Below are positions 6,363 to 58,420 of a stretch of 64,000 nt of DNA, in pieces. The stretch comes from an uncultured Fimbriimonadales bacterium (GTDB lineage: Bacteria > Armatimonadota > Fimbriimonadia > Fimbriimonadales > GBS-DC). The position numbers and the translations under genes were made by a program. How positions within the stretch are numbered: the stretch's first letter is position 1; each line of letters opens with the position of its first letter. The notes below the pieces were generated by a model. That model ran no database searches. It saw only the letters and a list, made by a program, of their open reading frames with translations, and had not been told where the DNA came from. Where the stretch lies: NCBI GenBank assembly GCA_937992175.1, contig CALKLF010000005.1, positions 695 through 64,694 of the forward strand, written 5' to 3'.

Positions 6363-6363
6363 G

Positions 6364-10642: not shown

Positions 10643-11247
10643 TGCAACGGATTGCGGTCACGGGCGGCGTCGCCGAAGGCAAGACCACCATCTTGCAAAT
10701 CTTCGAGTCGCTGGGCGCAGTCACGCTTAGCAGCGACCGCATCGCGGCGACGCTCCTCCTTCCAGGGACGGACTTATGGAGAGAACTGATTCGGGAGTTT
10801 GGGCAGGCGATTATCGAGGCGGATGGCGCGCTGGCGCGCGAGCGGCTAGCGCAAATAGCGTTCGGCGACGCGCAGCTTCGCCGTCGCCTGAACCGCCTGA
10901 TGCACCCCGCGGTTGTTCGTGCGCTGGAGATGCAGCTCAACGCGCTGGAAACCGCCTCTGCATCTGCTGTTTTAATCGAGGTTCCGCTGCTCATCGAAAC
11001 AGGGTTGCAGGGCTGGTTCGACGGCGTGATTGTGGCGCAGGCGACCCCTGCGCTCCAGCGACGGCGACTTCTGGAACGAGGTGTTCCCCCAGAACGCGCA
11101 CGACAGATTATCCGGGCGCAACTCCCCACGCGCTGCAAGGTCGCCTTCGCCGACTGGGTAATCCGCACGCATCGCTCGCTGGAGCAGGTCGAGCGGCAGG
11201 CGCGTCGAATCTGGCAATCGCTGACCGAGTCGCGTGGGGTATACTGA
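10642..11247 (+). CDS. coaE: Dephospho-CoA kinase
   Basis: MQRIAVTGGVAEGKTTILQIF P-loop. 201 aa. TAATG overlap with the rpsA stop. Confidence 0.85.
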   Translation: MQRIAVTGGVAEGKTTILQIFESLGAVTLSSDRIAATLLLPGTDLWRELIREFGQAIIEADGALARERLAQIAFGDAQLRRRLNRLMHPAVVRALEMQLNALETASASAVLIEVPLLIETGLQGWFDGVIVAQATPALQRRRLLERGVPPERARQIIRAQLPTRCKVAFADWVIRTHRSLEQVERQARRIWQSLTESRGVY

Positions 11248-11299
11248 GCAACGCAACGGAATTCGGTCTCGTTCGTCAAAAACGGACAGGAGTTTCTGG

Positions 11300-14200
11300 A
11301 TGCTTATGGAATCGAGCAACGGAAGAGGAGGTTCGAACGCAGTGATACGACGATGGCAGCTGATACTGGCGGGGCTTTTGCTTAGTTTGGCGGGTCATGC
11401 GCAGGGCGGCGATGCGTCGCAGTCGCCCCTGCAGGATCGTCCCAGCCGTAATATCTTGCCGAACGCGCGGGTGCGGGAGATCCCGCCCCAGAACTACAGG
11501 GTTGCGCCGTCACGCGCACCCCAAGATACCTCGAATGTGCGCTGGCGCAAGAACGGGCTGTTTGACCCCAAACAGTTCCATCAGCAACTCCAGCAGCGTC
11601 AGCAGCGCACGCGCGCGGTTCGGTGGGACACCGACATCACCAACGCCGCGACGGATGAGATGCATCCTGTTTACAATCCGGGCGCGTCTAAAATGTATTT
11701 CGCCAGCAACGCGGCCGGCGTCGGCGCGGACGGACGGCTGATTAACCCCACCCCGCGCTATCGTATCTGGCGCGGTGATGTGGACGAAGGGTCGCAGCTC
11801 TATGTCGGCAACCTGACGAATTTGATCCCCATCACGGGCGATACCCCCGATGAGCAGTTCGGCAGCCAGATTCAGCCCTCCCTTAACACGGCGGCGAACA
11901 TCATCGTCTACGCGAACCGCAGCGCAGCCGGCAGCTACAACATCGTCGTGCGCAACCTCAGCACGGGACAGCGCGTCGTATTGACCTCCGACAACAACGG
12001 CGTCACGCAGAACCTCCGCCCCACGCTTAGCCCCGGCGGCAACCTGGTGATCTTCTCCTCGAACCGTTTGCTCTCTGGCGAGACGGAAGCCGACCGCCGC
12101 TATCGGCTCTATGTGGCGCGCGCCGACGGGCGCCCCTTCGAAGACGGAACCTTCTTCCGACGTGTCACCTTTCCCGCGCCAGGCGAAAATGATGTAGAAC
12201 CTGCCTGGTCGCCTGATGGGAATCGCGTCGCCTTCGCGCGGATCGCCGCCGACGGCAGCAGCTACATCTATATGCTCGATTTCAATACGCTGACGGTTGT
12301 GCAGTGGACGAATTTCGTGGACGCCAGCAACAACAAGCCGCGCGATCGTCAGCCTGCATGGACGCGCATCGGCAATACGCCAGTATTAATCTTTGCCTCT
12401 ACCCGAAAATCGGGAACTCCGCATCAGCTCGGGCAACCCTCAGATCGGGTCGATGTCACCGGCAATATCTACGATATTTATCGGATGAACGCCGAGTTGC
12501 CCGAGCCGCTGAGCGGTTCCGTGCTTTCTCTTACCGCAGATCCCAGTAGCGCGTCGCTGGCGCGCCCTGATGTGCCAGGCGTGAGTTTCTTCGTTCCCGC
12601 TGCGGGCGCGAAGTATCCCACGGGCGCCATCGCAGAGCGCAATCGTATCGCTTATCATTCCACCCGAACGCAGGGCGCAGAGTCGCCCGGTCCAGGCATT
12701 CACGACCTGTGGGAGACCCGCGCCTTTGACCAGACCCCGCCTGTGATGGAAATCCTGCCCATCGTCAGCCCGAAAGAGTCGTTCCCAGGCGATACAGTGA
12801 CGATTAAGGTGCGCGCCGTCGACCTCCAGAGCGGCGTGAACTTTGTGCGGGTGCAGTTCAAAGACCCCGACAGCGCGGAACAGGACGCCGAAGGGTTGGA
12901 ACATCGCCTCTATCAACTGTTCCAGTTCGATATCTTCTTCACGAACCGAATCTTGGTGGATCAGGGGCAGGCATATGTACCGCTCTTCGTGGAGGTAGGA
13001 CATCAGGCGATTCATCCGGAGACCTATGAGTATAAGGAGCCGTACAGTCTGGCGCGACTGGGCTTCGACGGCAGTCTGGACGACACCCTGCTGCTGCAGC
13101 CCGAGCTGGACGACAATGGCAATCCTACCGACTGGTATGTCGGCACTTGGCGCACGCCCGATGTTCCAAGCGACTTCTACCTCGATGTGATTGTGCGCGA
13201 TAACGCGGGCAACGAGTTTATCTACGATAATGTCTCTGGCTTCACTACCCAGCAGTTCACAGGGGCGCATAACATCTTGCTCGTGTCGGACTACATGGGC
13301 GGTCAGATTTTCGTGCAGAACCGCGTGGCGGCGATTGGCAACTCCATCACCCGCCCGACTTGGCAGCCTGTGGAGAGCTACTGGACAGATAACCCGACGG
13401 GTAAGCCGCCGTTCGATATCACCCAACCTCCAAGCGGCAGCGGGCTGATTATTCACGGCGACGGTGCAATTCCGCATCCGAACCTGCCGCCTGGCTTCTT
13501 TATTCGCTCCGATACTTTGGGCGAGAACACGACCTATGGCAATCGCTATAATATTTGGCGCGTGCAGTGCCGCAACCCGATTACTCCATCCGTGCTGGCG
13601 GGCTACCTGCCGCGCACGGAACGCGAGCCGACCGACCTGACGGGCGGTTTCCGCGAGAAACTCCATGCAACTCGTATCGTGGTCTGGGGCAGCCCCTACA
13701 GCGGAAATGTGTGGGCGGGTCCGGGGCATGTTCTGGACCCGGAAGTGCAGGCGCTTATCCGCAGCTTCCTGCAAAGCAGCGGACGCATGGTGTTCAGCGG
13801 GCAGGATATTGCCTGGGCACTGACCCTGCGCGGCGCAGTGGCGAACCAGTTCATGATCGACATCCTGCGCGTCGCATTTGACAGCGACTCGGCAGATGAT
13901 GTGTTTTTGACCCCCTATGACGGTCTGCGACATCAACTGGAAGGCGTTGCGCCCCCGAGCGGCGAGGATCCGAACCCCATTGCCAGCAATCCTGGAGGAA
14001 TTGGCATCTGGATTCGATTTGAAGGCAACACGGTCCGTGTTGATTCGCCTGCGGAGTTGCGATTGTCGCATCCCGCCGCCTACTTAGTGCTTCCTAACGC
14101 GGATCTGTTCGATGTGATTACCCCGATAACTGGAGGAACAGGACCTCTATATACCGATGCCGCGTGGAACCAGGTCTGGCTGGACACCGTGAATGTGAAC

Positions 14201-16849
14201 GAGAATGCGCGCCCCGTCTATCGCTACACGCGCCCGCGCAGCCCGGAGGTTGGCGGAACGCTTATAGGTACTTCCGATAGGGCAGGCTCGTATTACGCCG
14301 ACGCCGCGACCCACTCGAAAGTGGCGTTCCTCTCTTTCGGCTTGGAAGGTGTTAACTCAACTTACAATGACGGTCCGACAATCGGTGGACAGGGAACCCT
14401 CTGGTGCCGTTCCTACCGCAATAAGATACTGCATAACGCTTTCGGCTGGATGACGCACAGTGTGCTGGAGGGGCAGGTACGCCAGTACGACCCCGATACG
14501 CGCACTTTCACCCCGCTGCCGCGTGTGCTGGTGCGCGTGATTGGCATCGCGCCGATCAGCATCGCTGGAGTGAACGCGGGCTACGCCATCACCGACTCCA
14601 ACGGACTGTACCGCATCGTCGGACTGGAAGCGGGCGTCTATCTGGTCGATGCAGAACGCCCCGGCTTCAAGACCCAGCACCCTGAGACGATTACGCTCGT
14701 GGCGGATGCCGACCCGAATCCGGGCGTTATCAACCTGATTATGCTCGCCACGCCGCCCGGGCAGATTAGCGGGCGCGTCATCGATATCAATAATCAGCCC
14801 GTGCGTGGCGCCGTCATCCGTGCGACCAATACCGTGGATCCTGAACTGACCGTCGAGGTGTTCAGCGACCCCGACGGAACCTTCTTGATGCCGCGCGTGC
14901 CAGTCGGAAGCTGGGATGTAACGGTCGTCAGCCTCGCGTTCGGCGGCTACGCCCTGCCACCCATCCAGCCCACGCCCGACGGCGTCTACCGCAATGTGCA
15001 GGTACAGGCTGGAGAGACCACGAATGTTGGCGACTTCGTGCTAGAGCCTGAGCCGGGCACCGTAACGGGGACCGTGACAGATGTGAACACAGGGCAGCCA
15101 ATCGCCAACGCGCGTGTCACGGCGGTTGCAGGCACAAACACCCGCGCCGATGTGACCACCGACGCGAACGGACAATACACCTTCACTGTGCCCGCGGGCG
15201 AGTATGTGGTTACCGCCGTTGCACCCGGCTACGCGCCTGAGAGCCAGACGCTGAATGTGCCTGCGAACCAGACCACCACACTCAACTTCCAGCTGGCGCT
15301 GCTGCCGCCCGGCTCCGCTTCGGGCAAGATTACCCGACGCTTCGGCGGCGCACCTGAACCCGATGTGACGGTTGAATTGCGCTTCGGCACGGTGGTGGTT
15401 CAAACAGCGACAACCGACGCCAACGGCAACTACAGCTTCCCCAATGTGCCCCCCGGCGAGTATGTGGTTGTGCCCACCAAGACGGGGTTCACCTTTATCC
15501 CCAATCAGCGCACGATTACGGTGAATCCGAACCAGAACACCGTTATCGGCGAGTTCAAGTCGGAGCCGCTGCGCACCTTCTTCAAGGGACGCTTCCTGGT
15601 TTCCGCGCCGTATGACTACACGCAGGATGTGAAAGATCTGCTCGATGTGCCCGCGAGCGCGACCTTCCGCTTCTTCAGCTGGAATCCCGCGCAGTCGCGT
15701 TATGTGTTCTATCCGAACGCGCCGGCGAACCGCTTCGAGCTCGGACGCGGCTATTTCATCGAGACTTCGGTGGATCTACCCCTGACCACGCAGGGGACGC
15801 CTGCCAACACAAGTCAGCCGTTCCAGAGTCCGCTGCAGGCGGGCTGGACCATGATTGGCAATCCGTTCACTTTCGATGTGGACTGGAGCGCGGTGCAGGT
15901 GATTGACCCCGACACGAACTTGCCCGTCTCGCTGTCGACAGCGGTTGGCAAGGGCATCGTGGCGAACGCGCTGTGGGGCTACTCGTTCGGCGCGTACACG
16001 GCGACCACACGCATGAAAATCTGGGAAGGCTACTGGGTGTACGCCTACCGCAATACGACGCTGATTATCCCGCCGACGGCGCAAGCAGCGAGTGCGCCGA
16101 GCCGCAGCGCGAGCGCGAACGCAGGCGGCTGGCGGCTGACGCTAGAAGCGGAGTCGGGCGACCTGCGCGACCGCGCCTATGTGGGCGTCTCGCGCGCGGC
16201 GACGCCGGGCTATGACCGCGAGCATGACCTGCTCAAACCGCCCCCTGTCGGCTCGGACTATGTGCATATCAGCCTGCCGCGCCTCACCTGGGGCGAGCAG
16301 AGCGGCGTCTATGGCGTGGACATCCAGCCTGCAATCCGCAGCGCGAACTGGGAGTTCATCGTGGAGACCAGTCAGCCGAATCGGGAGGTCACCCTGCGCT
16401 GGCCCGACGCACAGCAACTGCCGCGCTCGGCGAACCTCGTGCTGATCAATCTCGACACAGGCGAGCGGCGCTACCTGCGCACCACAGGCGCGTACACCTT
16501 CCGCACGGGCGTAAGCGGCGTGAGCCGATTCCGCATCGAAATGACCTCCAGCGGCGGATTGCTGCGTATCCAGCAGGTGCAGGTGAACACTGGACGCGGC
16601 AATCAGCACACCATCGCGTTCCAGCTGACAGGAGATGCGACGGTGCAGGTGAATATTCTCTCCGGCGGCAGGGTGGTGCGCCAGCTGCTCCATCAGGCGA
16701 CGCGCAGCGGCGTGCAACAAGCCACCTGGGACGGGCGCGACCAGAGCGGCGTCGCGTTGCCGCCCGGCGCATACACGATTGAAATTCGAGCCGTGAGCGA
16801 GGATGGTCAGGTCGCGCGTGCGACCGCGCCGCTCATCCTCACGCGCTGA
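11300..16849 (+). CDS. Giant secreted multidomain protein: signal peptide, TolB-like PD40 beta-propeller, unassigned ~650-aa centre, 4x CarboxypepD_reg-like domains, shared C-terminal module ending in a FlgD-Ig-like domain
   Basis: The internal ATG at 11300 follows GGAG. Signal peptide WQLILAGLLLSLAGHAQG. PD40 blades EPAWSPDGNRVAFAR and RPTLSPGGNLVIFSSNR. CarboxypepD_reg repeats, e.g. VTGTVTDVNTGQPIANARVTA...DANGQYTFTVPAGEYVV. C-terminus ATWDGRDQSGVALPPGAYTIEIRA...APLILTR*. Confidence 0.85.
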   Translation: MLMESSNGRGGSNAVIRRWQLILAGLLLSLAGHAQGGDASQSPLQDRPSRNILPNARVREIPPQNYRVAPSRAPQDTSNVRWRKNGLFDPKQFHQQLQQRQQRTRAVRWDTDITNAATDEMHPVYNPGASKMYFASNAAGVGADGRLINPTPRYRIWRGDVDEGSQLYVGNLTNLIPITGDTPDEQFGSQIQPSLNTAANIIVYANRSAAGSYNIVVRNLSTGQRVVLTSDNNGVTQNLRPTLSPGGNLVIFSSNRLLSGETEADRRYRLYVARADGRPFEDGTFFRRVTFPAPGENDVEPAWSPDGNRVAFARIAADGSSYIYMLDFNTLTVVQWTNFVDASNNKPRDRQPAWTRIGNTPVLIFASTRKSGTPHQLGQPSDRVDVTGNIYDIYRMNAELPEPLSGSVLSLTADPSSASLARPDVPGVSFFVPAAGAKYPTGAIAERNRIAYHSTRTQGAESPGPGIHDLWETRAFDQTPPVMEILPIVSPKESFPGDTVTIKVRAVDLQSGVNFVRVQFKDPDSAEQDAEGLEHRLYQLFQFDIFFTNRILVDQGQAYVPLFVEVGHQAIHPETYEYKEPYSLARLGFDGSLDDTLLLQPELDDNGNPTDWYVGTWRTPDVPSDFYLDVIVRDNAGNEFIYDNVSGFTTQQFTGAHNILLVSDYMGGQIFVQNRVAAIGNSITRPTWQPVESYWTDNPTGKPPFDITQPPSGSGLIIHGDGAIPHPNLPPGFFIRSDTLGENTTYGNRYNIWRVQCRNPITPSVLAGYLPRTEREPTDLTGGFREKLHATRIVVWGSPYSGNVWAGPGHVLDPEVQALIRSFLQSSGRMVFSGQDIAWALTLRGAVANQFMIDILRVAFDSDSADDVFLTPYDGLRHQLEGVAPPSGEDPNPIASNPGGIGIWIRFEGNTVRVDSPAELRLSHPAAYLVLPNADLFDVITPITGGTGPLYTDAAWNQVWLDTVNVNENARPVYRYTRPRSPEVGGTLIGTSDRAGSYYADAATHSKVAFLSFGLEGVNSTYNDGPTIGGQGTLWCRSYRNKILHNAFGWMTHSVLEGQVRQYDPDTRTFTPLPRVLVRVIGIAPISIAGVNAGYAITDSNGLYRIVGLEAGVYLVDAERPGFKTQHPETITLVADADPNPGVINLIMLATPPGQISGRVIDINNQPVRGAVIRATNTVDPELTVEVFSDPDGTFLMPRVPVGSWDVTVVSLAFGGYALPPIQPTPDGVYRNVQVQAGETTNVGDFVLEPEPGTVTGTVTDVNTGQPIANARVTAVAGTNTRADVTTDANGQYTFTVPAGEYVVTAVAPGYAPESQTLNVPANQTTTLNFQLALLPPGSASGKITRRFGGAPEPDVTVELRFGTVVVQTATTDANGNYSFPNVPPGEYVVVPTKTGFTFIPNQRTITVNPNQNTVIGEFKSEPLRTFFKGRFLVSAPYDYTQDVKDLLDVPASATFRFFSWNPAQSRYVFYPNAPANRFELGRGYFIETSVDLPLTTQGTPANTSQPFQSPLQAGWTMIGNPFTFDVDWSAVQVIDPDTNLPVSLSTAVGKGIVANALWGYSFGAYTATTRMKIWEGYWVYAYRNTTLIIPPTAQAASAPSRSASANAGGWRLTLEAESGDLRDRAYVGVSRAATPGYDREHDLLKPPPVGSDYVHISLPRLTWGEQSGVYGVDIQPAIRSANWEFIVETSQPNREVTLRWPDAQQLPRSANLVLINLDTGERRYLRTTGAYTFRTGVSGVSRFRIEMTSSGGLLRIQQVQVNTGRGNQHTIAFQLTGDATVQVNILSGGRVVRQLLHQATRSGVQQATWDGRDQSGVALPPGAYTIEIRAVSEDGQVARATAPLILTR

Positions 16850-16879
16850 GACGCAGACTATGAAGGAGGAGCAATCAGG

Positions 16880-18658
16880 GTGAAAACACGGATGAGACGA
16901 ACTTGGGCGACGCGCACAGCGTATCTTGGTGTGATGAGTATGCTCGCGGTGGGGCTGCTCTTCCCGTCGGGCGCTGCGCGCGCCTACGCGCAGCTGGTGC
17001 AACTGCCGCGTATCGCGGTATTGGACTTCGAGAACAAGAGCGGGTACGGCGGCGCAAGCATCGCCCGCGCTGCAACCGACGCCGTCGCGGGCGAATACCA
17101 AAAAACAGGCAAGTATGAGGTGCTGGCGCGGGGCGAGGTGGAGCAACAGCTGAAAGATCTCGACCTCGCACCCCCACTCACAAAAACAGGTTTCCTTCGC
17201 CTCGGACGCGCACTGCAAGCCGAATCGATTATCACGGGCGAAGTGAGCGCCGTGACCTTTGTGGGCAGCCCGAAACAAGCACAGGTGGTGCTCACGGTGC
17301 GGGTCATCGATATCGCGTCGGGTGAACCCATCAACGGCGCAGTCGCCACAGGCTACAGTAATCGCCGCCCCGGCTACACAGGCGACGACGACACGCTCGT
17401 GCAGGAAGCCATCCGCAACGCCGCGTTCGAAGCCGTGCGCACCATCCAGAACTACACCATCCCCGAAGCGACCATCCTGACCACGCGCGCAGGCAAAGAG
17501 GTGCTGCTTAATCGCGGCATTCGCGGCGGATTGCAACCTGGCATGGAGATGATTGTCGTGCGCCGCGGCGAGGAAGTGGGGCGCATTCGCGTCACCCAAG
17601 TCTCCGATAGCGACGCGGTGGGCGAGATTATCGACTTCGGGCGCGGTATCCAGAGCGAAGACCGCGCGCGCGCAATCTATCGAGTGCCCACGGTGCAGGT
17701 GCGGGCAGGCAAAGTCAGAACGGAGCCATCGCGGCGCCCTGGTGAAGGGAACAAGCTCCTGCGCGCTCTGGGACCCGTCCTGATTATCGGGTTAATCGCT
17801 TTTGGCGTGGCGCGCGCCTCGTCGGGCGGCAACACGCCGGTGCAAACCGTGCTGGCGGAAGCAGGTGCGGACGGCAACTTCGAACCCTATGTGCGCATCT
17901 CGTGGAAAACCACTCTGTTCGCAAAAAGCGCACCCGACACGATTCAGTGGCAGATCTATCGCTCGGACTTTATTGGCACGGACGGCAACGGCAACCTGCT
18001 GCCTGTCGGCGTGACTCCAGGCAACCAAAATTTCTTCATCGATACCACAGTGCCGCGCACCTTCAGCTACGCCAGCCTGCTGCGTGAAGGCAGTGAGGAC
18101 TTGGAACTTGAAGAGCTGGAAGGTGCGCCTGGCGTTGCACCCGGACGCTCCTACACTTATCAAATCGCGTTGGTGTATCGCGAACGCATCGAGGCGGAAG
18201 GTGAAACGCTCATTCTGTTCAAGCTCTCCGACCGCGTGCGTTCGGGGCAGGTGACCGTGCTGCAGCCTGTGCAGTTGCTGACACCCGTCCAGCGCAGCGA
18301 AGATGTAGACCCCAAAGATGTGCGCTTCAGCTGGCTGGCAGCGGAAGGCGCGAACGCCTATCGCGTGGAGGTCTCGACCGATCCGACCTTCCGCGACCGA
18401 AGCCGTACCTTTGTTTCGAACGAGATTCTGTCAACCGCCGTAGGCGGCTCTCCAGTGTCTACAGACCGTATCAATCTGGAAACTGCCCTGCTCAATCGGC
18501 TGGGGCTGTTGGGGCAGCGCGTGACGCTCTACTGGCGCGTGGGTGCGCGCAACTTGGGTGATAACCCCGGACCAATCCCAGACCCCCAGAGCAAGCTGCG
18601 CTATGTGTGGAGCCGACCGTTCGAGTTCACCACGCAGGAGCTGCCGCCTGCTCCGTAG
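16880..18658 (+). CDS. Envelope protein: signal peptide, CsgG/LpoB-like alpha/beta domain, small beta domain, hydrophobic helix, two FN3/Ig-like domains
   Basis: GTG start 10 nt after GAAGGAGG. PRIAVLDFENKSGYGG...AGEYQKTGKYEVLARGEVEQQLKDLDL...AESIITGEVSAV fits the CsgG-family pattern. Hydrophobic helix LLRALGPVLIIGLIAFGVARA. Confidence 0.6.
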   Translation: MKTRMRRTWATRTAYLGVMSMLAVGLLFPSGAARAYAQLVQLPRIAVLDFENKSGYGGASIARAATDAVAGEYQKTGKYEVLARGEVEQQLKDLDLAPPLTKTGFLRLGRALQAESIITGEVSAVTFVGSPKQAQVVLTVRVIDIASGEPINGAVATGYSNRRPGYTGDDDTLVQEAIRNAAFEAVRTIQNYTIPEATILTTRAGKEVLLNRGIRGGLQPGMEMIVVRRGEEVGRIRVTQVSDSDAVGEIIDFGRGIQSEDRARAIYRVPTVQVRAGKVRTEPSRRPGEGNKLLRALGPVLIIGLIAFGVARASSGGNTPVQTVLAEAGADGNFEPYVRISWKTTLFAKSAPDTIQWQIYRSDFIGTDGNGNLLPVGVTPGNQNFFIDTTVPRTFSYASLLREGSEDLELEELEGAPGVAPGRSYTYQIALVYRERIEAEGETLILFKLSDRVRSGQVTVLQPVQLLTPVQRSEDVDPKDVRFSWLAAEGANAYRVEVSTDPTFRDRSRTFVSNEILSTAVGGSPVSTDRINLETALLNRLGLLGQRVTLYWRVGARNLGDNPGPIPDPQSKLRYVWSRPFEFTTQELPPAP

Positions 18659-18667
18659 GCTTACGCG

Positions 18668-18690
18668 GGGCGCAGGGGAAACCTGCGCCC
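18668..18690 (+). terminator. Stem-loop just after the stop of the 16880 gene (weak terminator or processing site)
   Basis: gggcgcagg-ggaaa-cctgcgccc. It is followed at a distance by tctttt. Confidence 0.35.
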
Positions 18691-18735
18691 TGTTCAAGCG
18701 TCTTTTCAACAGGCAATTATCGGGAGGAGATACCG

Positions 18736-21648
18736 ATGAAACGGATGTGGCGATGGCTGGTTGGAATAGTCATTGGAGTGCACTGCGCACTCGCGCAGAC
18801 GCTCACGCCCGACGATGTCGTGCCGGGTGAGATGTTGATGCGTCTCAAGCCGGGACGCACCATCGATACCGCGCGTGCAATTGCTAATAGCATCGACGCG
18901 GAGGTGCGTCCGATTGCGGTGCGTGATACCTATCTGTTGCGTCTGCGGGAGCAGGCAACGCCTTTGACCCTGCTCCAGAAGGTGCAGGATACTGTGAAAA
19001 CCCTTCAAGAGCACGCAGATGTCCTCTATATCGAACCGCACTACATCTTACAATATCATGACATCCCTAACGATCCACTGTTCTCGGAGCAGTGGGCGCT
19101 GCAGATGATGAAACTGCCCGCCGCGTGGGACATCGAAAAGGGCGCAACCGGGATTCGTGTTGCCTTCATCGACGATAACTTCCAGCGCTCACATCCTGAC
19201 CTTGCGGGGTTGTTCGACCCGCTTTCGCGCAACTTCGCTGCAGACACTCCCAACGACAATATCGACCCTGAAGGTCCAGGGTTTTCGCACGGCACCTCCA
19301 CAGTCGGCGTGGCAGCGGCTGTGACCAACAACGGCATCGGCATCGCGGGGCTCATCTGGGAGAATGTCAAAATTGTGGGGTTGAAAGTGACCCAGCGTCC
19401 GCTCGGTCCGCTGTTCACGCAGAATGTCCTGGAAGCCTACCAGCACGTGATTGACAACGCGGCGCAGATTCATGTGCTGAACATGAGTTATGGCGGCTAC
19501 TTCTTCTCGCCAATTGCGAACGATTTGATTCAGGAGATTTACCGTCGCGGCGTTGTACCCGTCGCTTCAGCAGGGAACGGCAACACCGACATTCCTTCCT
19601 ATCCTGCCAGTTATGACAATGTGGTGCGCGTCTCGGCAGTTGGACGCACGGGCGCGAAGGCGTCCTATTCCGATTATGGCAACATCGACCTCGCTGCGCC
19701 CGGCGGCGATCAGGCGAGCAGCTACTTCGATGGCGTGATTACCACCGCCTCGACCAGCCAGCTGTACGACTATGTGCAGGGGACTTCCTATTCGAGTCCC
19801 TATGTTGCTGCAGCGGTGGCGCTGCTGCTCTCTGCAGGTGCGCAGCGTCATGGACTGAACACGGTGGAGCCTGAGGCGGTTGTGGCGCTGAAAGAAACCG
19901 CCGATTCGCGCGGGCGTCCCGTGCCTGACCCGGAACTCGGCTACGGAATCATCGATTTGGATCAGGCGCTACGCGGCGTGGGCGGCGTCGGGATTGCGTT
20001 CATCGCGCCTGTCTCGGGCACGACCGTCGACACGCGCCAGGTGCGTGTTAATGTGGTTGTGCGCCGCGTGCTGAACAATAATCCGGCGAACATCTTGAAT
20101 GTGCGCCTGAACGATGACCCGCTGCCGCGCAGTCTCTGGGAGCCGACCGCCGTGGTGGATGTACCCCGAAAGACAATCACGCTGGACTTCGTCGTGACGC
20201 TTCCAGGCGAAGGGCGGCACACCATCTCGGTTGAGGCAATTGGGCAGGATGGCGTCACGGGCAGCCGCTCCACGCGCGTCGTCGCGAAAGCTTATGTGCA
20301 GAACGCGGGGTTGGCGATGTTCTCCACGCCCTACGATATCCAGCTCACTCCGGAGGAAGTGTTTGGCAACGATGTGATTCTGGCGCGCTATCTGCCCGAG
20401 GAGGGAACATACGCCCGCTACTCGGCGGTGTCGCAGGATCCCCGCGCGAGTTTCAATCCGCCTGGACTGGCAGTGCGTCCCGATGGCTCGAACACCCCAA
20501 CGCCGCCGCGCGGCGTGGGCTACTTCCTGCGCACCACTTCGCCCGCGTTCATTTTGGGGAATCAAGATGTGGACACCAATACCGCCTACCTGATCCCCCT
20601 CCAGGAAGGCTGGAACATGATTGGCAATCCGTTTCCCTTCAATGTGCCGTGGGCGGCGTGTGAGGTGGAAATCTTCAACGCAGGCGGGCAGACCCAGCGC
20701 ATCAGCCTGCAGGAAGCAGCCGACCGCGACTATATCCGACTACAGATTTATCGCTATGTCCCGCTCACTGGCGAATACACTTGGCGCACCGCGCCGCTGG
20801 GCGAGCTGCTTGCTTGGCAAGCGCACTGGGTGAAAGCCCTCAAACCCTGCACGCTCGTTGTGCCGCCCGTCGGCTCCGTGCGCAGTCGCGCCGATCAGTC
20901 GCCGCGCGTCGAAGCGAAGCAGTCGGACGGTTGGCTCATTCGCTTGATTGCCCGCAGCGGCGACCGCGAGGATGCCAATAACCTCATCGGCGTGACATCG
21001 CTTGCAAGCGACGAATTCGGACGCGAGGATGTGGAGAAACCGCCTGTATTCAAATCGTATGTCGCGGTGAACATCCTCGAACCGCGCACCCGCAGTGCGC
21101 TTGCGCACGACCTGCGACGCAACGCGAAACGGGCGCAGCGATGGGAAATTGAAGTTGCCACGGATCAGCCCGACGCAGAAACGACGCTGCAGTGGACTCA
21201 GGAACTCCCCGTGCCTAAAGGCACACGACTCACCCTGATTGACCAGGCGACGGGACAACGCGTCTCCATGCTGCAGCAAAGCTCCTATCGGTTCCGCACG
21301 GACGAAACCAGTCGCCGTCGTTTCGTGATTGAGGCGCAGCCCGCGCGCACGGGACGCCTGCAGGTGACGAATATCGCGGTGACGCAAACGCGCGGCAATC
21401 AGTACACCATCCAGTATATGCTCAACAGTGAGGCGTCCGTGCAAGTGTTGGTTCAGGATGCAACGGGGAAGACCATCGCGCGTCTACAGAATGGCACTCG
21501 CTCGGCGGGCGTCAGCACAGCGACCTGGAACGGACGCACCGATACGGGCATCGCCGTGCCTCCCGGAGCTTACCAGCTTCAGATTGTCGCGACGGGCGAT
21601 GAAGGCGAGGCAGTGCGCGTGGTTCGACCGCTGGTGGTCGCCCGCTAA
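18736..21648 (+). CDS. Secreted subtilisin-family (S8) serine peptidase with an I9-like propeptide and the shared C-terminal module
   Basis: ATG 18736 follows GGGAGGAG. Signal peptide MKRMWRWLVGIVIGVHCALA. Catalytic regions VAFIDDN (Asp), FSHGTSTVGV (His), GTSYSSPYVAAAVALL (Ser). C-terminus ATWNGRTDTGIAVPPGAYQLQIVA...RPLVVAR*. Confidence 0.9.
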   Translation: MKRMWRWLVGIVIGVHCALAQTLTPDDVVPGEMLMRLKPGRTIDTARAIANSIDAEVRPIAVRDTYLLRLREQATPLTLLQKVQDTVKTLQEHADVLYIEPHYILQYHDIPNDPLFSEQWALQMMKLPAAWDIEKGATGIRVAFIDDNFQRSHPDLAGLFDPLSRNFAADTPNDNIDPEGPGFSHGTSTVGVAAAVTNNGIGIAGLIWENVKIVGLKVTQRPLGPLFTQNVLEAYQHVIDNAAQIHVLNMSYGGYFFSPIANDLIQEIYRRGVVPVASAGNGNTDIPSYPASYDNVVRVSAVGRTGAKASYSDYGNIDLAAPGGDQASSYFDGVITTASTSQLYDYVQGTSYSSPYVAAAVALLLSAGAQRHGLNTVEPEAVVALKETADSRGRPVPDPELGYGIIDLDQALRGVGGVGIAFIAPVSGTTVDTRQVRVNVVVRRVLNNNPANILNVRLNDDPLPRSLWEPTAVVDVPRKTITLDFVVTLPGEGRHTISVEAIGQDGVTGSRSTRVVAKAYVQNAGLAMFSTPYDIQLTPEEVFGNDVILARYLPEEGTYARYSAVSQDPRASFNPPGLAVRPDGSNTPTPPRGVGYFLRTTSPAFILGNQDVDTNTAYLIPLQEGWNMIGNPFPFNVPWAACEVEIFNAGGQTQRISLQEAADRDYIRLQIYRYVPLTGEYTWRTAPLGELLAWQAHWVKALKPCTLVVPPVGSVRSRADQSPRVEAKQSDGWLIRLIARSGDREDANNLIGVTSLASDEFGREDVEKPPVFKSYVAVNILEPRTRSALAHDLRRNAKRAQRWEIEVATDQPDAETTLQWTQELPVPKGTRLTLIDQATGQRVSMLQQSSYRFRTDETSRRRFVIEAQPARTGRLQVTNIAVTQTRGNQYTIQYMLNSEASVQVLVQDATGKTIARLQNGTRSAGVSTATWNGRTDTGIAVPPGAYQLQIVATGDEGEAVRVVRPLVVAR

Positions 21649-21669
21649 CGGGAAGGAGGCGAACGGATT

Positions 21670-24363
21670 ATGAAACGATGGGTTTTGACATTACTGAGCA
21701 ACAGTATCCTGGTGGCGTCGCTCTGGGCGCAGGGGTCCTATCAGCCGGGACCTCTCGAGCCGTGTGGATGTCCCGATAACCAGAACCCTGTGAGCAGCGA
21801 CTACGGCGTTATCTTCGTCAGCAACGGCGTGCTGGGCGCGACGCTGGGCTTGAGCGGAACCGTGACCTGGTGGACGGGATGCTTCCCTATTGAGAACACC
21901 ACCTGTACGACGCGCCCTGCGGAGGGCAGTATCCAGCTCGGTACGGCAAGCGGCAGCAGTTTGCTGAACGACTCGGACATTGCCATGACCGCGGGCTACC
22001 CGTGGGCGGTTTATCCTGCAGGCATTTACATCACGATGCGCTCCGTGCGGGAAAACCAAACCCAGACTTTTGTCTGGGGACGTCAGGGGGGGCCTAATGT
22101 AACCTTTTCGCAAGCATGGCCTGGCGCCAGTGGCTACTACATTCGCCGCATCTGGAATGTAGAAGGATGGGATACTGACCTGCGCATCGACCTCATTCAG
22201 TCGGTGGCGCGGATTAGCCTGCGTGTGCGCAACAGCGGCGACACTGCAGCCTCGCTTGCGCTACGCCTGGCGTCGGATGTAGAGACCGGCGTCGAGGCAG
22301 GTTTTGTCCAGAATGGCGCGTCGCGACCGCCCTATGTCTATGTGCAGGGACAACGCCCAATCAAGATCGATTCCGACCTGCGCGGCTTGCAGATCCCCAA
22401 CGCCATCGAGTTCTATCTCGGGCGTGGTAACCTGCCTGGCTCGTCGCGCTACATGCTGCGACCCGTCAAAGGATTCGAAGACCAGACGCCCATCGACCGC
22501 CTGGTCATCGGGGACTGGTTCTTCGTACAGGGCACTACAATCTGGGAGCCCGTGTTATTCCCCGACTCGTTTATCGACGATGTGGCAATCAACCTGTTCG
22601 TCAACGCGCGCAACTTCGCGCCAGGGCAGACTCGCGAGTTTGTGTTTTATGTGACTCTGACTCCTGTGGATTTGGATGTTCAGCCTCCGATTGCGCTGGG
22701 TGTCGAGGCGCTGCCCGTTATCGAACCCGACCAGAGCAATCTGGGTCAGCTGGCGCAGGGTGGGCAGTTCCAGGTGTTTGCGAATGTAACCAATCAGTAT
22801 TTCATCGTCGGGCGCGAGATTGACCTGAATAATATCGTGGTCGACATCTCACTGCCGTCGGGATTGTCGCTCGCGCCGGGGCAGAGTCGTACTCGCACCA
22901 TCTCACGCCTTGCGCCGGGGCAAACCGCGCCTGTGAGCTGGGTTGTGGTTGCTGATCCCACCACCGTAGGGTTTACTACGATTCGGGTCTCCGTACAAGC
23001 CCCACCTGCGCCCACGAAATCGGTGACACGCACAATCCTCGTCTCCGCAACCGCGAACCGGAAGCTGGAATCGGGCTTTCAGATTGTCTCGATTCCGTTT
23101 ACGATGACGGGCACGCTGGAAGAGGTGTTGAACTTGCCCGTGGCGTATCAGGCGAAACGCTGGAACCCACAACGGGAACTGTACGAGACTATCGATACGA
23201 TTCAGCCGGGGCAGGGGTTCTGGCTCTTCTTGCCAGGCGACGCCATCATCGCGAACTACGATACGAGTGTCCTGCGGTTCCCTACTGGCGTGTTTGATGC
23301 CAGCCTGCCTGTGCCACTCAAGAAGGGCTGGAACCAGATTGGCAACCCCTATCCCTACCCGCTGGTGCTAGGGCAGGTGGTGGTCGTCGGCTCCAGTGAC
23401 CCGTCGTCCAGTCTAAGCTTCTTTGAGGCGGCGCAGCGGGGCGTGATTCGCGGCGTGCTGTATTACTGGGATGAGTTCACTAACGAGTATAAGTTCACTT
23501 CGGATCCCAACACGCCGCTGCTGCCCCATCGCGGCTACTGGATTAAGGTCAGTGAGGATGTGGAGTTCGTCTATCCTCCCGTCTTTCTGCCGGGCACAGG
23601 GTTTGGCGGTATCATTATCCGTTCAGCCAGTGAACCTGTGAACCGCCCCAACGACTGGCGATTGCAAATTGTCGCCCACACGAATCGCGGGGTGGATACG
23701 CAGAACTATATCGGCATTAGCAGTGGACGCTCGGCAGGCGATATCGAGGAGCCGCCCACGCCGCTGCCCGAACGCGCGGTGAACCTGACGATTCTCAAGT
23801 CGGGTACGGGAACGCCCCTAATGCAGGAAATCCGACCGCTGGCGAACCGACAACAGTTCGACCTGGTGGTGGAAGCCGCGCCAGGCGAGGAGGTCACACT
23901 GACCTTCCCGAACCTGAACACCGTGCCGCAGGGCTTCCGCCTCCGCCTGAACGACCTGAACACGGGACGCTCGATTGATCTGCGCACGACGCCCGAATAT
24001 CGGTTCGTCTCGACGGGACGCACGCGCCTGCAACTGACCGTGGAGCGCGCGGCGCGCACGGGCGCGTTGATTACCAGTGTGAATGTGGGCGCCGCGGGGC
24101 GCGGCGCGAACAGCGTCTCCATCTCCTATGTGCTGGCGGATAATGCCCAGACGAGCATCCAGATTCTGGGCTCCGACGGACGCACGGTTGCGAATCTGCA
24201 TCGCGGGCGTGCGGCGACGCGCGGCGTGAACACGGTTGCGTGGAACCTGCGCGACGACCAGGGACGCGCGGTACCGCCCGGAACCTATCAGGTGCAGGTG
24301 GAGGCGCGCACCGAAGACGGTCAGGTTGCTCGCGCGACGCGACCGCTCGTGCTGACGCGCTAA
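21670..24363 (+). CDS. Secreted protein of unknown function (novel N-terminal ~450 aa, CARDB/NEW3-like Ig domain) carrying the shared C-terminal module
   Basis: GAAGGAGG lies upstream. Signal peptide MKRWVLTLLSNSILVASLWAQG. GWNQIGNPYPYP...GYWIKV...VAWNLRDDQGRAVPPGTYQVQVEA...RPLVLTR*. Confidence 0.8.
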   Translation: MKRWVLTLLSNSILVASLWAQGSYQPGPLEPCGCPDNQNPVSSDYGVIFVSNGVLGATLGLSGTVTWWTGCFPIENTTCTTRPAEGSIQLGTASGSSLLNDSDIAMTAGYPWAVYPAGIYITMRSVRENQTQTFVWGRQGGPNVTFSQAWPGASGYYIRRIWNVEGWDTDLRIDLIQSVARISLRVRNSGDTAASLALRLASDVETGVEAGFVQNGASRPPYVYVQGQRPIKIDSDLRGLQIPNAIEFYLGRGNLPGSSRYMLRPVKGFEDQTPIDRLVIGDWFFVQGTTIWEPVLFPDSFIDDVAINLFVNARNFAPGQTREFVFYVTLTPVDLDVQPPIALGVEALPVIEPDQSNLGQLAQGGQFQVFANVTNQYFIVGREIDLNNIVVDISLPSGLSLAPGQSRTRTISRLAPGQTAPVSWVVVADPTTVGFTTIRVSVQAPPAPTKSVTRTILVSATANRKLESGFQIVSIPFTMTGTLEEVLNLPVAYQAKRWNPQRELYETIDTIQPGQGFWLFLPGDAIIANYDTSVLRFPTGVFDASLPVPLKKGWNQIGNPYPYPLVLGQVVVVGSSDPSSSLSFFEAAQRGVIRGVLYYWDEFTNEYKFTSDPNTPLLPHRGYWIKVSEDVEFVYPPVFLPGTGFGGIIIRSASEPVNRPNDWRLQIVAHTNRGVDTQNYIGISSGRSAGDIEEPPTPLPERAVNLTILKSGTGTPLMQEIRPLANRQQFDLVVEAAPGEEVTLTFPNLNTVPQGFRLRLNDLNTGRSIDLRTTPEYRFVSTGRTRLQLTVERAARTGALITSVNVGAAGRGANSVSISYVLADNAQTSIQILGSDGRTVANLHRGRAATRGVNTVAWNLRDDQGRAVPPGTYQVQVEARTEDGQVARATRPLVLTR

Positions 24364-24415: not shown

Positions 24416-25111
24416 GTGAAAAGTATCGGCGTACTAATCATCGCTTTACTTTTGATGAGGGGCTTCGCGGCGGATGAGGCGCGCGAGCTGGTGCTGTTCC
24501 CCTTCGGACAGGGAGCCGCCGTGCAGCCCGTGGAGGAGTTTAATGTCGAGGTAGAGGCTCTGAACGCGCTCTACGCCCAGCTGAAGGACCTTCCAAGCTT
24601 GTATGTGCTGCGCTATCGGGAGACGAACCCGTCCATCCGCCGCGCGATTGACGAGAACCGTATCCGCCGCGACCGCCTGACCCCGCCGTTCAACGAGCGC
24701 GAGGCGGACGGCACATGGCGCGCGGCGCGCGTGGGTGCGCTGCTCGGCGTCGACCTCGCGTTCGCCGGGCGCATCGAGGAGTCCAGCTACGACCCGAACT
24801 TGCGCGAGGCGATTGTGACCATCAGCGGCGACCTAATCGATGTGCAATCAGGCGAGGTGCTGGTCTCCGTTGCGGAAACCGGGCGCGGAAGGCTCGGCAC
24901 CGATCAGGACGATCCGAATGTCGCCCGCATCGCGGCGGTTGCGCAGGCGGCGGAGAAAATCGGCGCCGCCATTCGCACGCACCTCGCGCCGCCCGCCGAG
25001 CAACCGACCACCGTCGAGGAGCGAAAACAGCCTGACCGCAAGCGCGAGCGGGCGGCGGTCACGCTCTTCGTGCTGATTCTCGGCGCGGTGCTGGGCGGCG
25101 CCCAATTCTAA
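24416..25111 (+). CDS. Periplasmic CsgG/LpoB-like-fold protein with an N-terminal signal and a C-terminal tail-anchor helix
   Basis: The in-frame GTG at 24416 lies 5 nt after GAAGGAGG. (M)KSIGVLIIALLLMRGFA; ELVLFPFGQG...LGVDLAFAGRIEESSY...ISGDLIDVQSGEVL. The extreme C-terminus is AAVTLFVLILGAVLGGAQF*. Confidence 0.55.
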   Translation: MKSIGVLIIALLLMRGFAADEARELVLFPFGQGAAVQPVEEFNVEVEALNALYAQLKDLPSLYVLRYRETNPSIRRAIDENRIRRDRLTPPFNEREADGTWRAARVGALLGVDLAFAGRIEESSYDPNLREAIVTISGDLIDVQSGEVLVSVAETGRGRLGTDQDDPNVARIAAVAQAAEKIGAAIRTHLAPPAEQPTTVEERKQPDRKRERAAVTLFVLILGAVLGGAQF

Positions 25112-25115
25112 CTGA

Positions 25116-27056
25116 ATGCGCACGGGCAGTAAAATCCATCGATACTGGAGCGGGGCAGGGGGGTTGTGGCTCCTCTGCCTTTGCGCTTGCTGGGCAAACG
25201 GTGCGATTCGGCTCACCGCCTATCCGACCGCGGCAGTCGCCGATAGCGCGTCGCAGATTCTCATCACCGCCGAAGTGCGCACCGCGCAGGGCAAACCCGC
25301 GCCTGACGGAACCCAGATCGCCTTCAACACAACGCTCGGCGTGTTTCGGGAGTCTATCGTCGCGACCGAGAGCGGCGTCGCACGCGCAACGCTCATCGCC
25401 AGTCAGCTGCCTGGAACCGCGACCATCACGGCGACCGCCATCGGGCAGGGCGTCGTGGGCGAAGTGCAGGTGCTGTTCGTGGCGACTCAAGAGGAGCTGC
25501 GCAGCGCAACCGACTATGTGCAGGTGCTCGGCGAGTATCTTGCCTATGCCAACGAACAGCGCGTGATTGCTGCCTCTGGCAAGGAGCGCACCGCCAGCGT
25601 GCGATTCAGCTTCACACTGATTGAGGCAGATGACCTGCAACTGGAAGTCGACAGCCTGCGTGTCAAAGCCCGCAACGCCCGCTTGAAGTACGGCTCGGAG
25701 CAGCACGAGTTCGCGGAGCTGAGCTACGAGCTGCGCTCCTCGCAGGGGTTTGGGGTGCGCCAGCGCGAGAACCGCTGGGAAGTTGTACGAATCCGCTCTG
25801 GCGCGATTGAGCCGTTTGACGCCGTTGCCCCGCCTGAACTGTTCCAATTCGCCGACATTTCCGAATCGGAGCTGGTTATCAAAGCGGCGCAAATCTGGTT
25901 CTATCCGGGCGAACGCATCCAGTTCCATCGGGCGGAGTTCTATGTGGGCGAGGTGAGGTCGCTGAGCCTGCCGCTCTATTCGCAGAGCCTCTGGAGCGGC
26001 GGGGTGGGGAGCGACGCGCTGATTGGGGTGCAGAACGGGCAGGTGTATCTGGATGTGCCGTATTATTACGCGCTGACCCCGACGCAGATTGGGGCGTTGC
26101 GCCTGCGCACCGCGCAGGTCGGCGGGCGCACGATGGGCGCCGCGCGCGGAATGTTTCTGGATCTGGAGCATGAGTATCGTGTGGAACTGGGTACGGGGAT
26201 GTTCAGCATAACGGGTCTCGCGCGCGACGACTGGGGCGTGAATTGGCGACACCAGCAGCCGCTCTCGCCGACCACGCGCTTCACCATGTGGCTCGACTCA
26301 CCTGCCCATCGAGGCGTCTACGGCTCCGCGCAGCTCGCTCATCAGGCGCGGGGCTTCTCGACGGGCTTGACCCTCGCGGGCAGCACGCACTGGCAGGGCG
26401 TACGCGCCAGCAGCCTGCGTTCCGATTTGTTCATTGAAACCACCCCGCGCCGCGTATCTGACCTGCCCGTGCGCCAGAGCTTTTCGCTGAGTCTCACATC
26501 GAGCCGCACTCAAAACACGCTTGGCATTCAAAACCGCGAAGGGATCGGCGTGCGAGTGCGCTGGAACCTGATCCCGCAGTCGCTTGGACGCTCCACGACG
26601 CTCACAGGGGGCATGACCGTCGGGCGGTTCGTGGGCAACCTTCCTAATGCGGGCTGGAGCATTACGGGTACAGTGGGGATTACGCACGCGCTGGGGAACA
26701 GCGGCGCGCTCAGCCTGAACTATGACTACACGCAGGACGCCCTCGCCGCGAACCTGCTGGGCAGACATCGCCTCTCAGGGAGCCTCGGCTGGAGCCTGAG
26801 CGACCGCTTTTACCTCACGGGCTACATGAGCCGCGCACTGGATGCCGATTCTGTGAGTTATGTCGGGGATTTCTCGTGGCGAATCAGCCCCCTCTGGCGA
26901 ATAGGCGTCGGGTATACTTTGCAGTCGTACAATCAGTACGACTTTCGCGATCAGACCTTGACAATCGCATACCGCATCGGCTACCGTGAGGTGGCGCTGA
27001 CATGGTCGTCTTTCACCCGGCGATGGAGCTTCGACCTGCTCACAGCGTTTTATTAA
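25116..27056 (+). CDS. Outer-membrane beta-barrel protein with an N-terminal Big_1-type Ig domain and an LptD/OstA-like middle region
   Basis: Signal peptide GLWLLCLCACWANG. Ig domain: SQILITAEVRTAQGKPAPDGTQIAFNTTLGVF...GTATITATA. The C-terminal half is alternating-pattern beta strands ending ...WSFDLLTAFY* (aromatic terminus). FHRAEFYVGEVRSLSLPLYSQSL recalls the LptD jellyroll-barrel junction; this comparison is from memory. Confidence 0.5.
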   Translation: MRTGSKIHRYWSGAGGLWLLCLCACWANGAIRLTAYPTAAVADSASQILITAEVRTAQGKPAPDGTQIAFNTTLGVFRESIVATESGVARATLIASQLPGTATITATAIGQGVVGEVQVLFVATQEELRSATDYVQVLGEYLAYANEQRVIAASGKERTASVRFSFTLIEADDLQLEVDSLRVKARNARLKYGSEQHEFAELSYELRSSQGFGVRQRENRWEVVRIRSGAIEPFDAVAPPELFQFADISESELVIKAAQIWFYPGERIQFHRAEFYVGEVRSLSLPLYSQSLWSGGVGSDALIGVQNGQVYLDVPYYYALTPTQIGALRLRTAQVGGRTMGAARGMFLDLEHEYRVELGTGMFSITGLARDDWGVNWRHQQPLSPTTRFTMWLDSPAHRGVYGSAQLAHQARGFSTGLTLAGSTHWQGVRASSLRSDLFIETTPRRVSDLPVRQSFSLSLTSSRTQNTLGIQNREGIGVRVRWNLIPQSLGRSTTLTGGMTVGRFVGNLPNAGWSITGTVGITHALGNSGALSLNYDYTQDALAANLLGRHRLSGSLGWSLSDRFYLTGYMSRALDADSVSYVGDFSWRISPLWRIGVGYTLQSYNQYDFRDQTLTIAYRIGYREVALTWSSFTRRWSFDLLTAFY

Positions 27057-37019: not shown

Positions 37020-37040
37020 ACACGGACAGGATTGTCCGTG

Positions 37041-38522: not shown

Positions 38523-38569
38523 AGAGGATTAATAGGGTAGGAGCAGGGTCGCCCTGCCCCTCCCCCTGC

Positions 38570-39424: not shown

Positions 39425-39438
39425 TTGCCTCCCTCCAA

Positions 39439-58294: not shown

Positions 58295-58407
58295 AGCGTG
58301 GGAAATCGCCGGCGCGTTTCCCCCAGTTGAGGTCAGGTCGTGTACCATGATTAGACCTGTAGGAGCGGGTTCCAAAAATTGAGCGTGGACACAGCACTAC
58401 TTTCAGG

Positions 58408-58413
58408 TACACT
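58408..58413 (+). promoter_or_regulatory. -10 box TACACT, 7 nt upstream of ATG 58421; leaderless-type promoter
   Basis: Reads caGGTACACTttttgccATG. Confidence 0.45.
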
Positions 58414-58420
58414 TTTTGCC

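Follow-up and report, generated by a model that had tools for sequence, protein, structure and literature searches.

In Porphyromonas, the C-terminal domains (CTDs) of PorU and PorZ are retained and docked on barrels. FlgD, the flagellar hook cap, is a small flagellar scaffold that is exported by the flagellar apparatus and carries its Ig domain internally. For the CTDs of the type 9 secretion system (T9SS), the published features include a seven-strand (4+3) beta-sandwich, a GxY motif and, close to the end, a basic residue (PMC11969387), and the system itself is described as limited to Bacteroidota or to the Fibrobacterota-Chlorobiota-Bacteroidota (FCB) group (PMC11611037, PMC12398890). Here we compare with these systems three neighbouring genes in a 64,000-nt stretch of contig CALKLF010000005.1 from an uncultured Fimbriimonadales bacterium of the phylum Armatimonadota (the whole stretch is hereafter called the window). 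The genes encode a giant protein with a propeller, an S8 peptidase of the subtilisin family, and an 897-residue protein, p897; the three products share a homologous tail of ~420-450 C-terminal residues, which is composed of three domains, D1, D2 and D3. What is new here is the combination of a CTD-like end domain that has a signature of its own with two unnamed, very widespread domains, in a conserved block of predicted envelope genes outside the FCB group.

The homology of the tails is apparent from pairwise BLASTP: the tail of the giant aligns with that of the S8 peptidase at 32% identity over 452 residues (E = 1e-52) and with that of p897 at 29% identity over 507 residues (E = 2e-32), and the tails of the S8 peptidase and p897 align at 33% identity over 366 residues (E = 4e-44). 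The observed scores were 124-189 bits, as compared to 26 bits for the best of 400 shuffled-tail controls. The N-terminal parts of the three proteins showed no mutual similarity in the same comparison. An earlier note on this DNA, which had aligned the three C-termini by eye and regarded the N-terminal parts as unrelated, thus proved correct on both counts; the module starts given there (15578, 20308 and 23074) agree to within a few codons with the boundaries found here (15581, 20293 and 23068). All the motifs quoted in that note were recovered in the alignment, namely GWN/TxIGNPF/Y, the starts GGWRL, DGWLI and NDWRL, RGNQ, and W(D/N)GR..G.A(V/L)PPG.Y, and so was the common end position: the termini APLILTR (giant), RPLVVAR (S8 peptidase) and RPLVLTR (p897) run, together with their stop codons, into a single alignment column. 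Conservation had also been suggested at the nucleotide level. The stretch in question, GGCTGGA(C/A)CATGATTGGCAATCCGTT, is indeed present at two sites, 15846-15871 and 20612-20637, within a 79-nt segment of 72% identity, so that what is conserved is of the order of a motif. Since nucleotide identity is restricted to such motif-sized stretches, it points to selection on the GWNMIGNPF motif and not to recent exchange; recent recombination or gene conversion among the tails could be ruled out on this ground and because, phylum-wide, the tails track their own payloads (see below).

The architecture of the tail was derived from an AlphaFold2 model of the 451-residue tail of the S8 peptidase, built on 22 aligned homologues, with a mean predicted local distance difference test score (pLDDT) of 87.8 and a predicted template modelling score (pTM) of 0.72. 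The model resolves three all-beta domains, which bears out the tripartite build proposed from the sequence: D1 of ~170-195 residues, which carries the GWNxIGNPF motif, D2 of ~140 residues, and D3 of ~95 residues. The junction between D2 and D3 is short and was confidently modelled (pLDDT ~75); the sole disordered loop in this model lies between D1 and D2. For the ~340 residues of D1 and D2 that precede D3, neither Pfam-A nor NCBIfam gave a match (E≤0.1-1), be it in the three proteins of the window or in the relatives P0020, P0021, P0031, P0035 and P0037, in agreement with the earlier remark that these two sub-modules cannot be recognised as named domains. Similarly, a profile search of the PDB with the tail yielded matches in D3 only and none for D1 or D2, and the literature searches on FlgD-Ig C-terminal tails and on the GWNxIGNP motif brought up nothing relevant. 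A fold search of the PDB with the entire tail returned weak tandem-sandwich matches with template modelling (TM) scores of at most 0.2 (the Vpr fibril, C5a peptidase, beta-glucuronidase, PorU and PorZ); these are weak and generic, and an assignment of the tail based on them was dropped. Nor do we claim that D1 is an internal duplication of a '...GxGYW' unit, the hhalign probability being 35% over 21 columns.

Unlike D1 and D2, the end domain has solved relatives; the profile search found only FlgD structures (E = 4.5e-12) and the CTDs of PorU (6za2, E = 6e-6) and PorZ (5m11, E = 1.4e-3). The FlgD Ig domain (FlgD_ig, PF13860) is the strongest sequence match of D3; it is found above the gathering threshold of 27 bits in all three proteins (39.2, 56.3 and 37.5 bits), which confirms the FlgD-Ig-like nature previously ascribed to the last sub-module. 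When 108 related end domains from other genomes were compared with Pfam and NCBIfam, counting matches at E≤0.01, FlgD_ig was matched by all 108, the CTD part of the PorU model, at its C-terminus, by 88, the PorZ model by 39, TIGR04183 by 37, and PF18962 by none. Unlike the Ig domain of FlgD, D3 is found at the C-terminal end, on large enzymes and propeller proteins that are exported by Sec. PorU and PorZ provide its best matches on the T9SS side, and the carriers here likewise include a peptidase and a propeller protein; the peptidase is, however, of family S8 and not C25, homology is absent outside the CTD, and no PorV or PorQ was identified.

In common with the T9SS type A CTD, D3 is a seven-strand beta-sandwich (in the model of 451 residues, the strands lie between residues 358 and 449) at the very C-terminus of multi-domain proteins that are exported by Sec and vary in payload; it shares detectable sequence homology, contains the GxY of motif D in the form PPG(A/T)Y and a basic residue resembling motif E in its R-P-L-V-x-x-R ends, and the same D1-D2 pair precedes the type A CTD in other bacteria. 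On the other hand, D3 fails both of the type A models, TIGR04183 and PF18962, and has RGNQ or a variant in place of the PNPF of motif B: among 170 related CTDs, strict PNP/NPF was found in none and loose PNP/NPx in three. The consensus of these 170 domains reads ...WnGRd..G.aVPaG.Ylvei.A.t.DGq.aravrP.v.tR, and the very last residue is Arg in 160 of them. Besides this near-invariant terminal Arg, the differences include a last hairpin that is longer by five residues, the fixed location of D3, always behind D1-D2 (for one deviating open reading frame (ORF), see below), a flexible loop that lies ~240 residues from the end and not just before the CTD, and a host phylum that is not known to have T9SS. 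Because it fails TIGR04183 and PF18962 and is devoid of motif B, D3 is, as judged by sequence, best described as a homologue of the T9SS CTDs with its own signature. Accordingly, of the link to T9SS type A sorting domains drawn in the earlier note, the homology stands, through the matches to PorU and PorZ, and the type A assignment does not.

These comparisons bear directly on the possibility that the three proteins are ordinary T9SS cargo, i.e. that a canonical, possibly divergent T9SS is encoded elsewhere in the genome, D3 being a divergent CTD of type A, to be recognised by PorV/SprA and cut off by PorU, with D1-D2 as a part of the cargo. The homology of D3 to T9SS CTDs, the features that resemble motifs D and E, and the fact that other bacteria have D1-D2 before true type A CTDs (one such protein, from Gemmatimonadetes, has been named accordingly by NCBI) would all fit this possibility. 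It appears quite unlikely, nevertheless, given that TIGR04183 stays below its cutoff in the three proteins, that PF18962 goes unmatched in them and, at E≤0.01, in all of their 108 relatives, that motif B is missing from the 170-domain consensus, that no T9SS gene was found in the 64-kb window, and that reviews confine T9SS to Bacteroidota/FCB, a link between T9SS and Armatimonadota not having been found in the library of papers searched. Furthermore, organisms with T9SS have many free-standing CTD cargoes, whereas the ~1.3 Mb of mostly Armatimonadota loci that we inspected contain only one ORF with D3 but without D1-D2, and this ORF (in locus L052) is from WOR-3.

The loci just mentioned are the best 77 of at least 450 encoding loci that a scan of species-representative genomes brought up. 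Nearly all of the 77 belong to Armatimonadota (Fimbriimonadales, Chthonomonadales including C. calidirosea, Armatimonadia, Abditibacteriales and Zipacnadia), and WS1, WOR-3 and Stahlbacteria are also represented. In these 77 loci, D3 directly follows D1-D2 in 171 of the 188 carrier ORFs, the remaining D1-D2 carriers being mostly, as it seems, cut by contig ends or without D3 (as in WOR-3/Stahlbacteria). Together with the terminal Arg (160/170), this makes the case for a fixed C-terminus stronger than had been claimed from the three window proteins. It also speaks to the view that there is no signal at all, the tail being a set of generic Ig-like spacer domains that were inherited by duplication on periplasmic proteins, so that the fixed end would reflect common descent only. 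Such a view could draw on the fact that D1-D2 is seen with other endings or with none, on the generality of the FlgD_ig fold, which is found in the flagellar FlgD as well, and on the TolB-like, periplasmic-type domains of the giant. We consider it improbable, since the terminal Arg and the exact end are conserved across the phylum at 30% overall identity, the coupling of D3 to D1-D2 and its place at the extreme C-terminus are strict, and the equivalent position is taken in other lineages by a known export signal.

The last point emerges from a search with a profile of D1+D2 that was built without D3 and run against representative proteins clustered at 50% identity. It matched 15,277 clusters at E≤1e-3, 8,653 at E≤1e-10 and 2,512 at E≤1e-30, with proteins of the family ranging from 340 to 5087 residues in length. 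Most of the best 150 matches leave 85-100 C-terminal residues (for example, the match extends to residue 890 of 978, 1742 of 1830 or 531 of 627), and a second group leaves ~175-185 residues; sequences from it have a second D1 behind D1-D2 and no end domain. Some distant relatives have, behind D1-D2, a genuine type A CTD of the T9SS that contains the NYPNPFN motif: P0020, P0035 and P0037 pass PF18962 and served as positive controls for that model, and P0031 shows the same arrangement below the threshold. In WOR-3, PQQ-propeller/CarboxypepD_reg proteins (L052, 7001-10801; L059, 7001-10798) stop right after D2, with no end domain. One more relative is found in Candidatus Hatepunaea. The payloads across the relatives comprise S8 and M6 peptidases, propellers, Ig arrays and others without assignment; M6 peptidases, Big_3 arrays and a family of ~1070 residues are also found as extra carriers elsewhere in the same genomes. 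It follows that D1 and D2 make up a domain pair in its own right, very common and unnamed, and that what comes behind this pair differs by lineage. The two sub-modules are not special to the tail: their family is very large and has other endings (a T9SS CTD, a second D1, or nothing).

Two groups within this family deserve mention in their own right. One is a family of ~600-630 residues, strikingly constant in length, from Gemmatimonadetes and unclassified bacteria (P0020-P0032, P0035 and the loci L079-L081), which consists of a signal peptide, a conserved N-terminal domain of ~170 residues, D1, D2 and a CTD of T9SS or FlgD_ig type; it includes the Gemmatimonadetes protein that is named by NCBI as a T9SS type A sorting domain protein. 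The other comprises proteins of unclassified bacteria (P0065, P0066, P0073, P0086, P0098 and P0104) in which the payload is followed by D1, D2 and a second D1 and the chain ends a few residues later; no FlgD_ig or T9SS end domain was found in these six.

In the window, the three carriers are members of a block in the order giant, p592, S8-type carrier, p897, p231, p630. This order is kept from Fimbriimonadales to Chthonomonadales, Armatimonadia, Zipacnadia and candidate division WS1, at identities down to 22-35%. The tails track their own payloads, in 42 of 44 cases for the giant, 40 of 42 for the S8 peptidase and 29 of 50 for p897; the triplication of the tail is, therefore, ancient. Thus, the picture of three payloads on a common stalk that the earlier note had drawn holds insofar as a tripartite module is attached to unrelated payloads; the three genes are, however, not a casual set of cargoes but ancient paralogues within a block that is conserved across the phylum. 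No terminator-like sites were found between the genes of the block, which hints weakly at co-transcription. In five loci from Armatimonadia, Zipacnadia and WS1 (L044, L048, L051, L063 and L074), two more large ORFs lie downstream of the p630 orthologue, the first of ~670-690 residues and the second of ~410-690 residues; they have no counterpart in the window.

The conservation of the block raises the question of whether the tails serve assembly and not sorting, that is, whether the three of them bind each other or polymerise into a hetero-oligomeric envelope complex, coat or fibre, with D3 as the assembling part. The retention of three paralogues together and in the same order across the classes of Armatimonadota and in WS1, and the co-retention after an ancient triplication that is implied by the tracking of the payloads, would be in line with such a function, as would the pTM value, suggestive of a fairly rigid multi-domain rod, and the identity of the best, albeit weak, fold match of the tail, the fibril form of the S8 peptidase Vpr (8jmw; E = 2e-6, TM 0.19). 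However, such fold matches are weak and generic; carriers that stand alone, with other payloads, occur elsewhere in the same genomes (for example, L071 and L014 are from one metagenome-assembled genome, and there is the ~1070-residue family); and a very large family with many payloads looks like a general-purpose module. We regard an assembly function as unlikely.

Taken together, these data lead us to suggest, tentatively and at somewhat below an even chance, that the most likely function of the tail is that of a module, retained after Sec export, by which envelope or surface proteins are docked or sorted; D3 would be the part that a partner in the outer membrane recognises, and D1-D2 would form a fixed stalk. 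A role as a sorting or anchoring signal, as surmised in the earlier note, is plausible. The carriers would first be exported by the Sec pathway; D3, being a retained docking or sorting domain, would then be bound by a partner in the outer membrane, in a manner that might resemble the recognition, in T9SS bacteria, of PorU and PorZ through their uncleaved CTDs; D1-D2 would link the payload, as a stalk or adaptor, to the end near the membrane; and, as the outcome, the protease, the propeller/CarboxypepD_reg protein and p897 would be held at the cell envelope or surface. We favour this reading because the tails are homologous on unrelated and diverse payloads, because D3 occupies a fixed end with an almost constant last residue, because distant homologues place a bona fide T9SS type A CTD behind the same D1-D2, and because D3 matches FlgD_ig, PorU and PorZ, the neighbours are predicted envelope proteins and the carriers start with signal-like sequences. 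The model of the S8 tail, with its three all-beta domains and one disordered loop, argues in the same direction, and so does the phosphate porin encoded in the window, which supports the existence of an outer membrane. Of this reading, the homology, the three-domain build, the fixed position, the family size, the old paralogy and the conservation of the block were observed here, whereas the export across the outer membrane or the anchoring to it, the partner and the retention of the tail are inferred.

Several observations weigh against this reading. Even the S8 peptidase, the best of the three in this respect, misses the TIGR04183 cutoff of 23 bits, with 14.6 bits for the whole protein and 16.4 bits for the isolated CTD; TIGR04183 was unmatched in the giant and in p897, and PF18962 was unmatched at E≤0.1 in all three. 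The position of motif B (PNPF) is taken by RGNQ, or by GRGAN in p897. Among the ~40 ORFs that were scanned, all within the 64-kb window, none for SprA/Sov, PorV, PorU or PorK/L/M/N was found. The proteins with tails could be periplasmic. The occurrence of D1-D2 without an end domain, or followed by a second D1, indicates that the pair has a role of its own. Finally, rpsA and coaE are also syntenic upstream of the block, and, therefore, gene order alone is no proof of functional coupling.

A T9SS-CTD-like end domain that is fixed on envelope proteins in Armatimonadota implies either an unrecognised T9SS-like pathway or a broader, or older, docking role of CTD-type domains. Since D1-D2 adjoins secretion-type end domains in many uncultured phyla, defining this pair would allow thousands of large surface proteins to be annotated better. 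In addition, the phylum-wide block provides concrete candidates for an envelope machine, namely, three tailed proteins, two LpoB/FlgT-like proteins and an LptD-like barrel, and the phylum has cultured members, Chthonomonas calidirosea and Fimbriimonas ginsengisoli.

The three remaining products of the block, p592, p231 and p630, are, judging by sequence comparison and structure prediction, probably envelope proteins (LpoB/FlgT/TsaP-like in the case of the first two and an LptD-like barrel in the case of the third). In closely related loci, it is p592 whose identity to its counterparts is highest. The orthologues of p592 match LpoB (8.5e-6 in Pfam; 1.8e-4 in PDB), FlgT_C, the C-terminal domain of TsaP (PDB, 2.9e-4) and Fn3-like domains. 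The smaller p231 looks like a shorter relative of p592, and its counterparts in distant lineages have an Fn3-like domain added. The topology of both is puzzling: the hydrophobic helix is in the middle of the protein or at its end, and in p592 and the distant p231 counterparts it is followed by Fn3-like domains. The identification of p592 and p231 as LptE was rejected, as it had sub-threshold backing only (LptE, E = 0.098) and the matches to LpoB, FlgT_C and TsaP, though modest, were better.

For p630, the predicted structure (pLDDT 78) contains a beta-jellyroll and a barrel of ~26 strands, as in LptD, and a fold search with it placed 14 LptD entries on top (E from 1.8e-16 to 3e-13, full-length LptD being the best match), ahead of usher barrels (5e-8) by ~8 orders of magnitude. 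Unlike LptD, however, p630 carries an extra N-terminal Big_1 domain, the TM scores were low (~0.3), and no match to the Pfam LptD/OstA families was found at E≤1. We found the p630 family only in Armatimonadota; the sources annotate its members as 'Ig-like' or 'invasin domain 3' proteins.

By analogy, one could go further and imagine that the block of Armatimonadota and WS1 encodes a T9SS-independent apparatus for surface attachment, in which the S8 peptidase would be an analogue of PorU and the propeller and other proteins would be analogues of PorZ, all held via the D1-D2 stalk and retained PorU/PorZ-like ends at an LptD-like barrel that would be ringed by the LpoB/FlgT/TsaP-like proteins. 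This is a long shot, and we rate it as very unlikely. Should it be true, the anchoring or processing of proteins would be coupled to the export of lipopolysaccharide, and outside the FCB group the D1-D2-CTD tail would represent an evolutionary relative of the T9SS sorting signal, or its precursor.

The features of the window are compiled in the table. Hydrophobic, signal-like sequences were seen by eye at the N-termini of the giant, the S8 peptidase and p897. Over residues 181-447, the middle carrier matches the Pfam Peptidase S8 family (PF00082) with 126.3 bits, the cutoff being 21.8, and candidate catalytic Asp, His and Ser motifs were recognised in it by eye. No Pfam match above threshold was found for the payload of p897. 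A six-frame scan with hidden Markov models revealed no fourth carrier of the tail in the 64-kb window.

Table. Coordinates of the tail carriers, their domains, the block neighbours and other genes in the window
Feature	Position	Strand	Description
Giant, ORF	11234-16849	+	1871 residues (gene caller: 1834 residues, computed start near 11345); signal peptide (by eye), PD40/TolB-like propeller, four CarboxypepD_reg domains (~residues 1170-1440), then tail
Giant, region between propeller and CarboxypepD_reg array	~12700-14750	+	~residues 500-1170 (~670 residues); no domain assigned
Giant, D1	15581-16084	+	residues 1450-1617; carries GRGYFI and PLQAGWTMIGNPFTF
Giant, D2	16121-16552	+	residues 1630-1773
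Giant, D3	16553-16849	+	FlgD_ig/CTD-like; end APLILTR
p592	16880-18658	+	signal peptide, LpoB/TolB_N/CsgG-like alpha/beta domain, FlgT_C/TsaP-like beta domain, hydrophobic stretch, Fn3-like domains
S8 peptidase (subtilisin family) with tail	18736-21648	+	called product of 970 residues
S8 peptidase, full ORF	18607-21648	+	reaches upstream to 18607; 1013 residues
S8 peptidase, D1	20293-20877	+	model residues 1-195
S8 peptidase, D1-D2 linker	20878-20922	+	model residues 196-210; disordered, pLDDT below 50
S8 peptidase, D2	20923-21348	+	model residues 211-352
S8 peptidase, D3	21349-21648	+	model residues 353-451; seven-strand FlgD_ig/CTD-like sandwich; end RPLVVAR
p897	21670-24363	+	897 residues; signal peptide, payload of ~465 residues, then tail
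p897, D1	23068-23598	+	
p897, D2	23647-24057	+	
p897, D3	24058-24363	+	FlgD_ig/CTD-like; end RPLVLTR
p231	24416-25111	+	signal peptide, alpha/beta domain resembling the N-terminal domain of p592, C-terminal hydrophobic helix
p630	25164-27056	+	longer form from 25116 (630/646 residues); Big_1, jellyroll-like region, ~26-strand barrel
Pair of FHA-domain proteins	5112-7761	+	
Pst phosphate uptake operon	35272-40758	-	PstS-like binding protein, two permeases, ATPase
N6/N4 DNA methylase	47252-48034	-	
Uma2-family putative endonuclease	51957-52571	-	
Fic-domain protein	58379-59632	+	

The other ORFs of the window that were scanned are housekeeping genes, among which the methylase, the Uma2-family putative endonuclease and the Fic-domain protein are scattered. 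Adjacent to the Pst operon lies a gene for a homologue of the phosphate-selective porin O/P. Upstream of the giant, two adjacent proteins both end in an FHA domain and both also match the cytoplasmic domain of YscD of the type III secretion system; the first of them has a weak match to CarboxypepD_reg, and the second has two FHA stretches.

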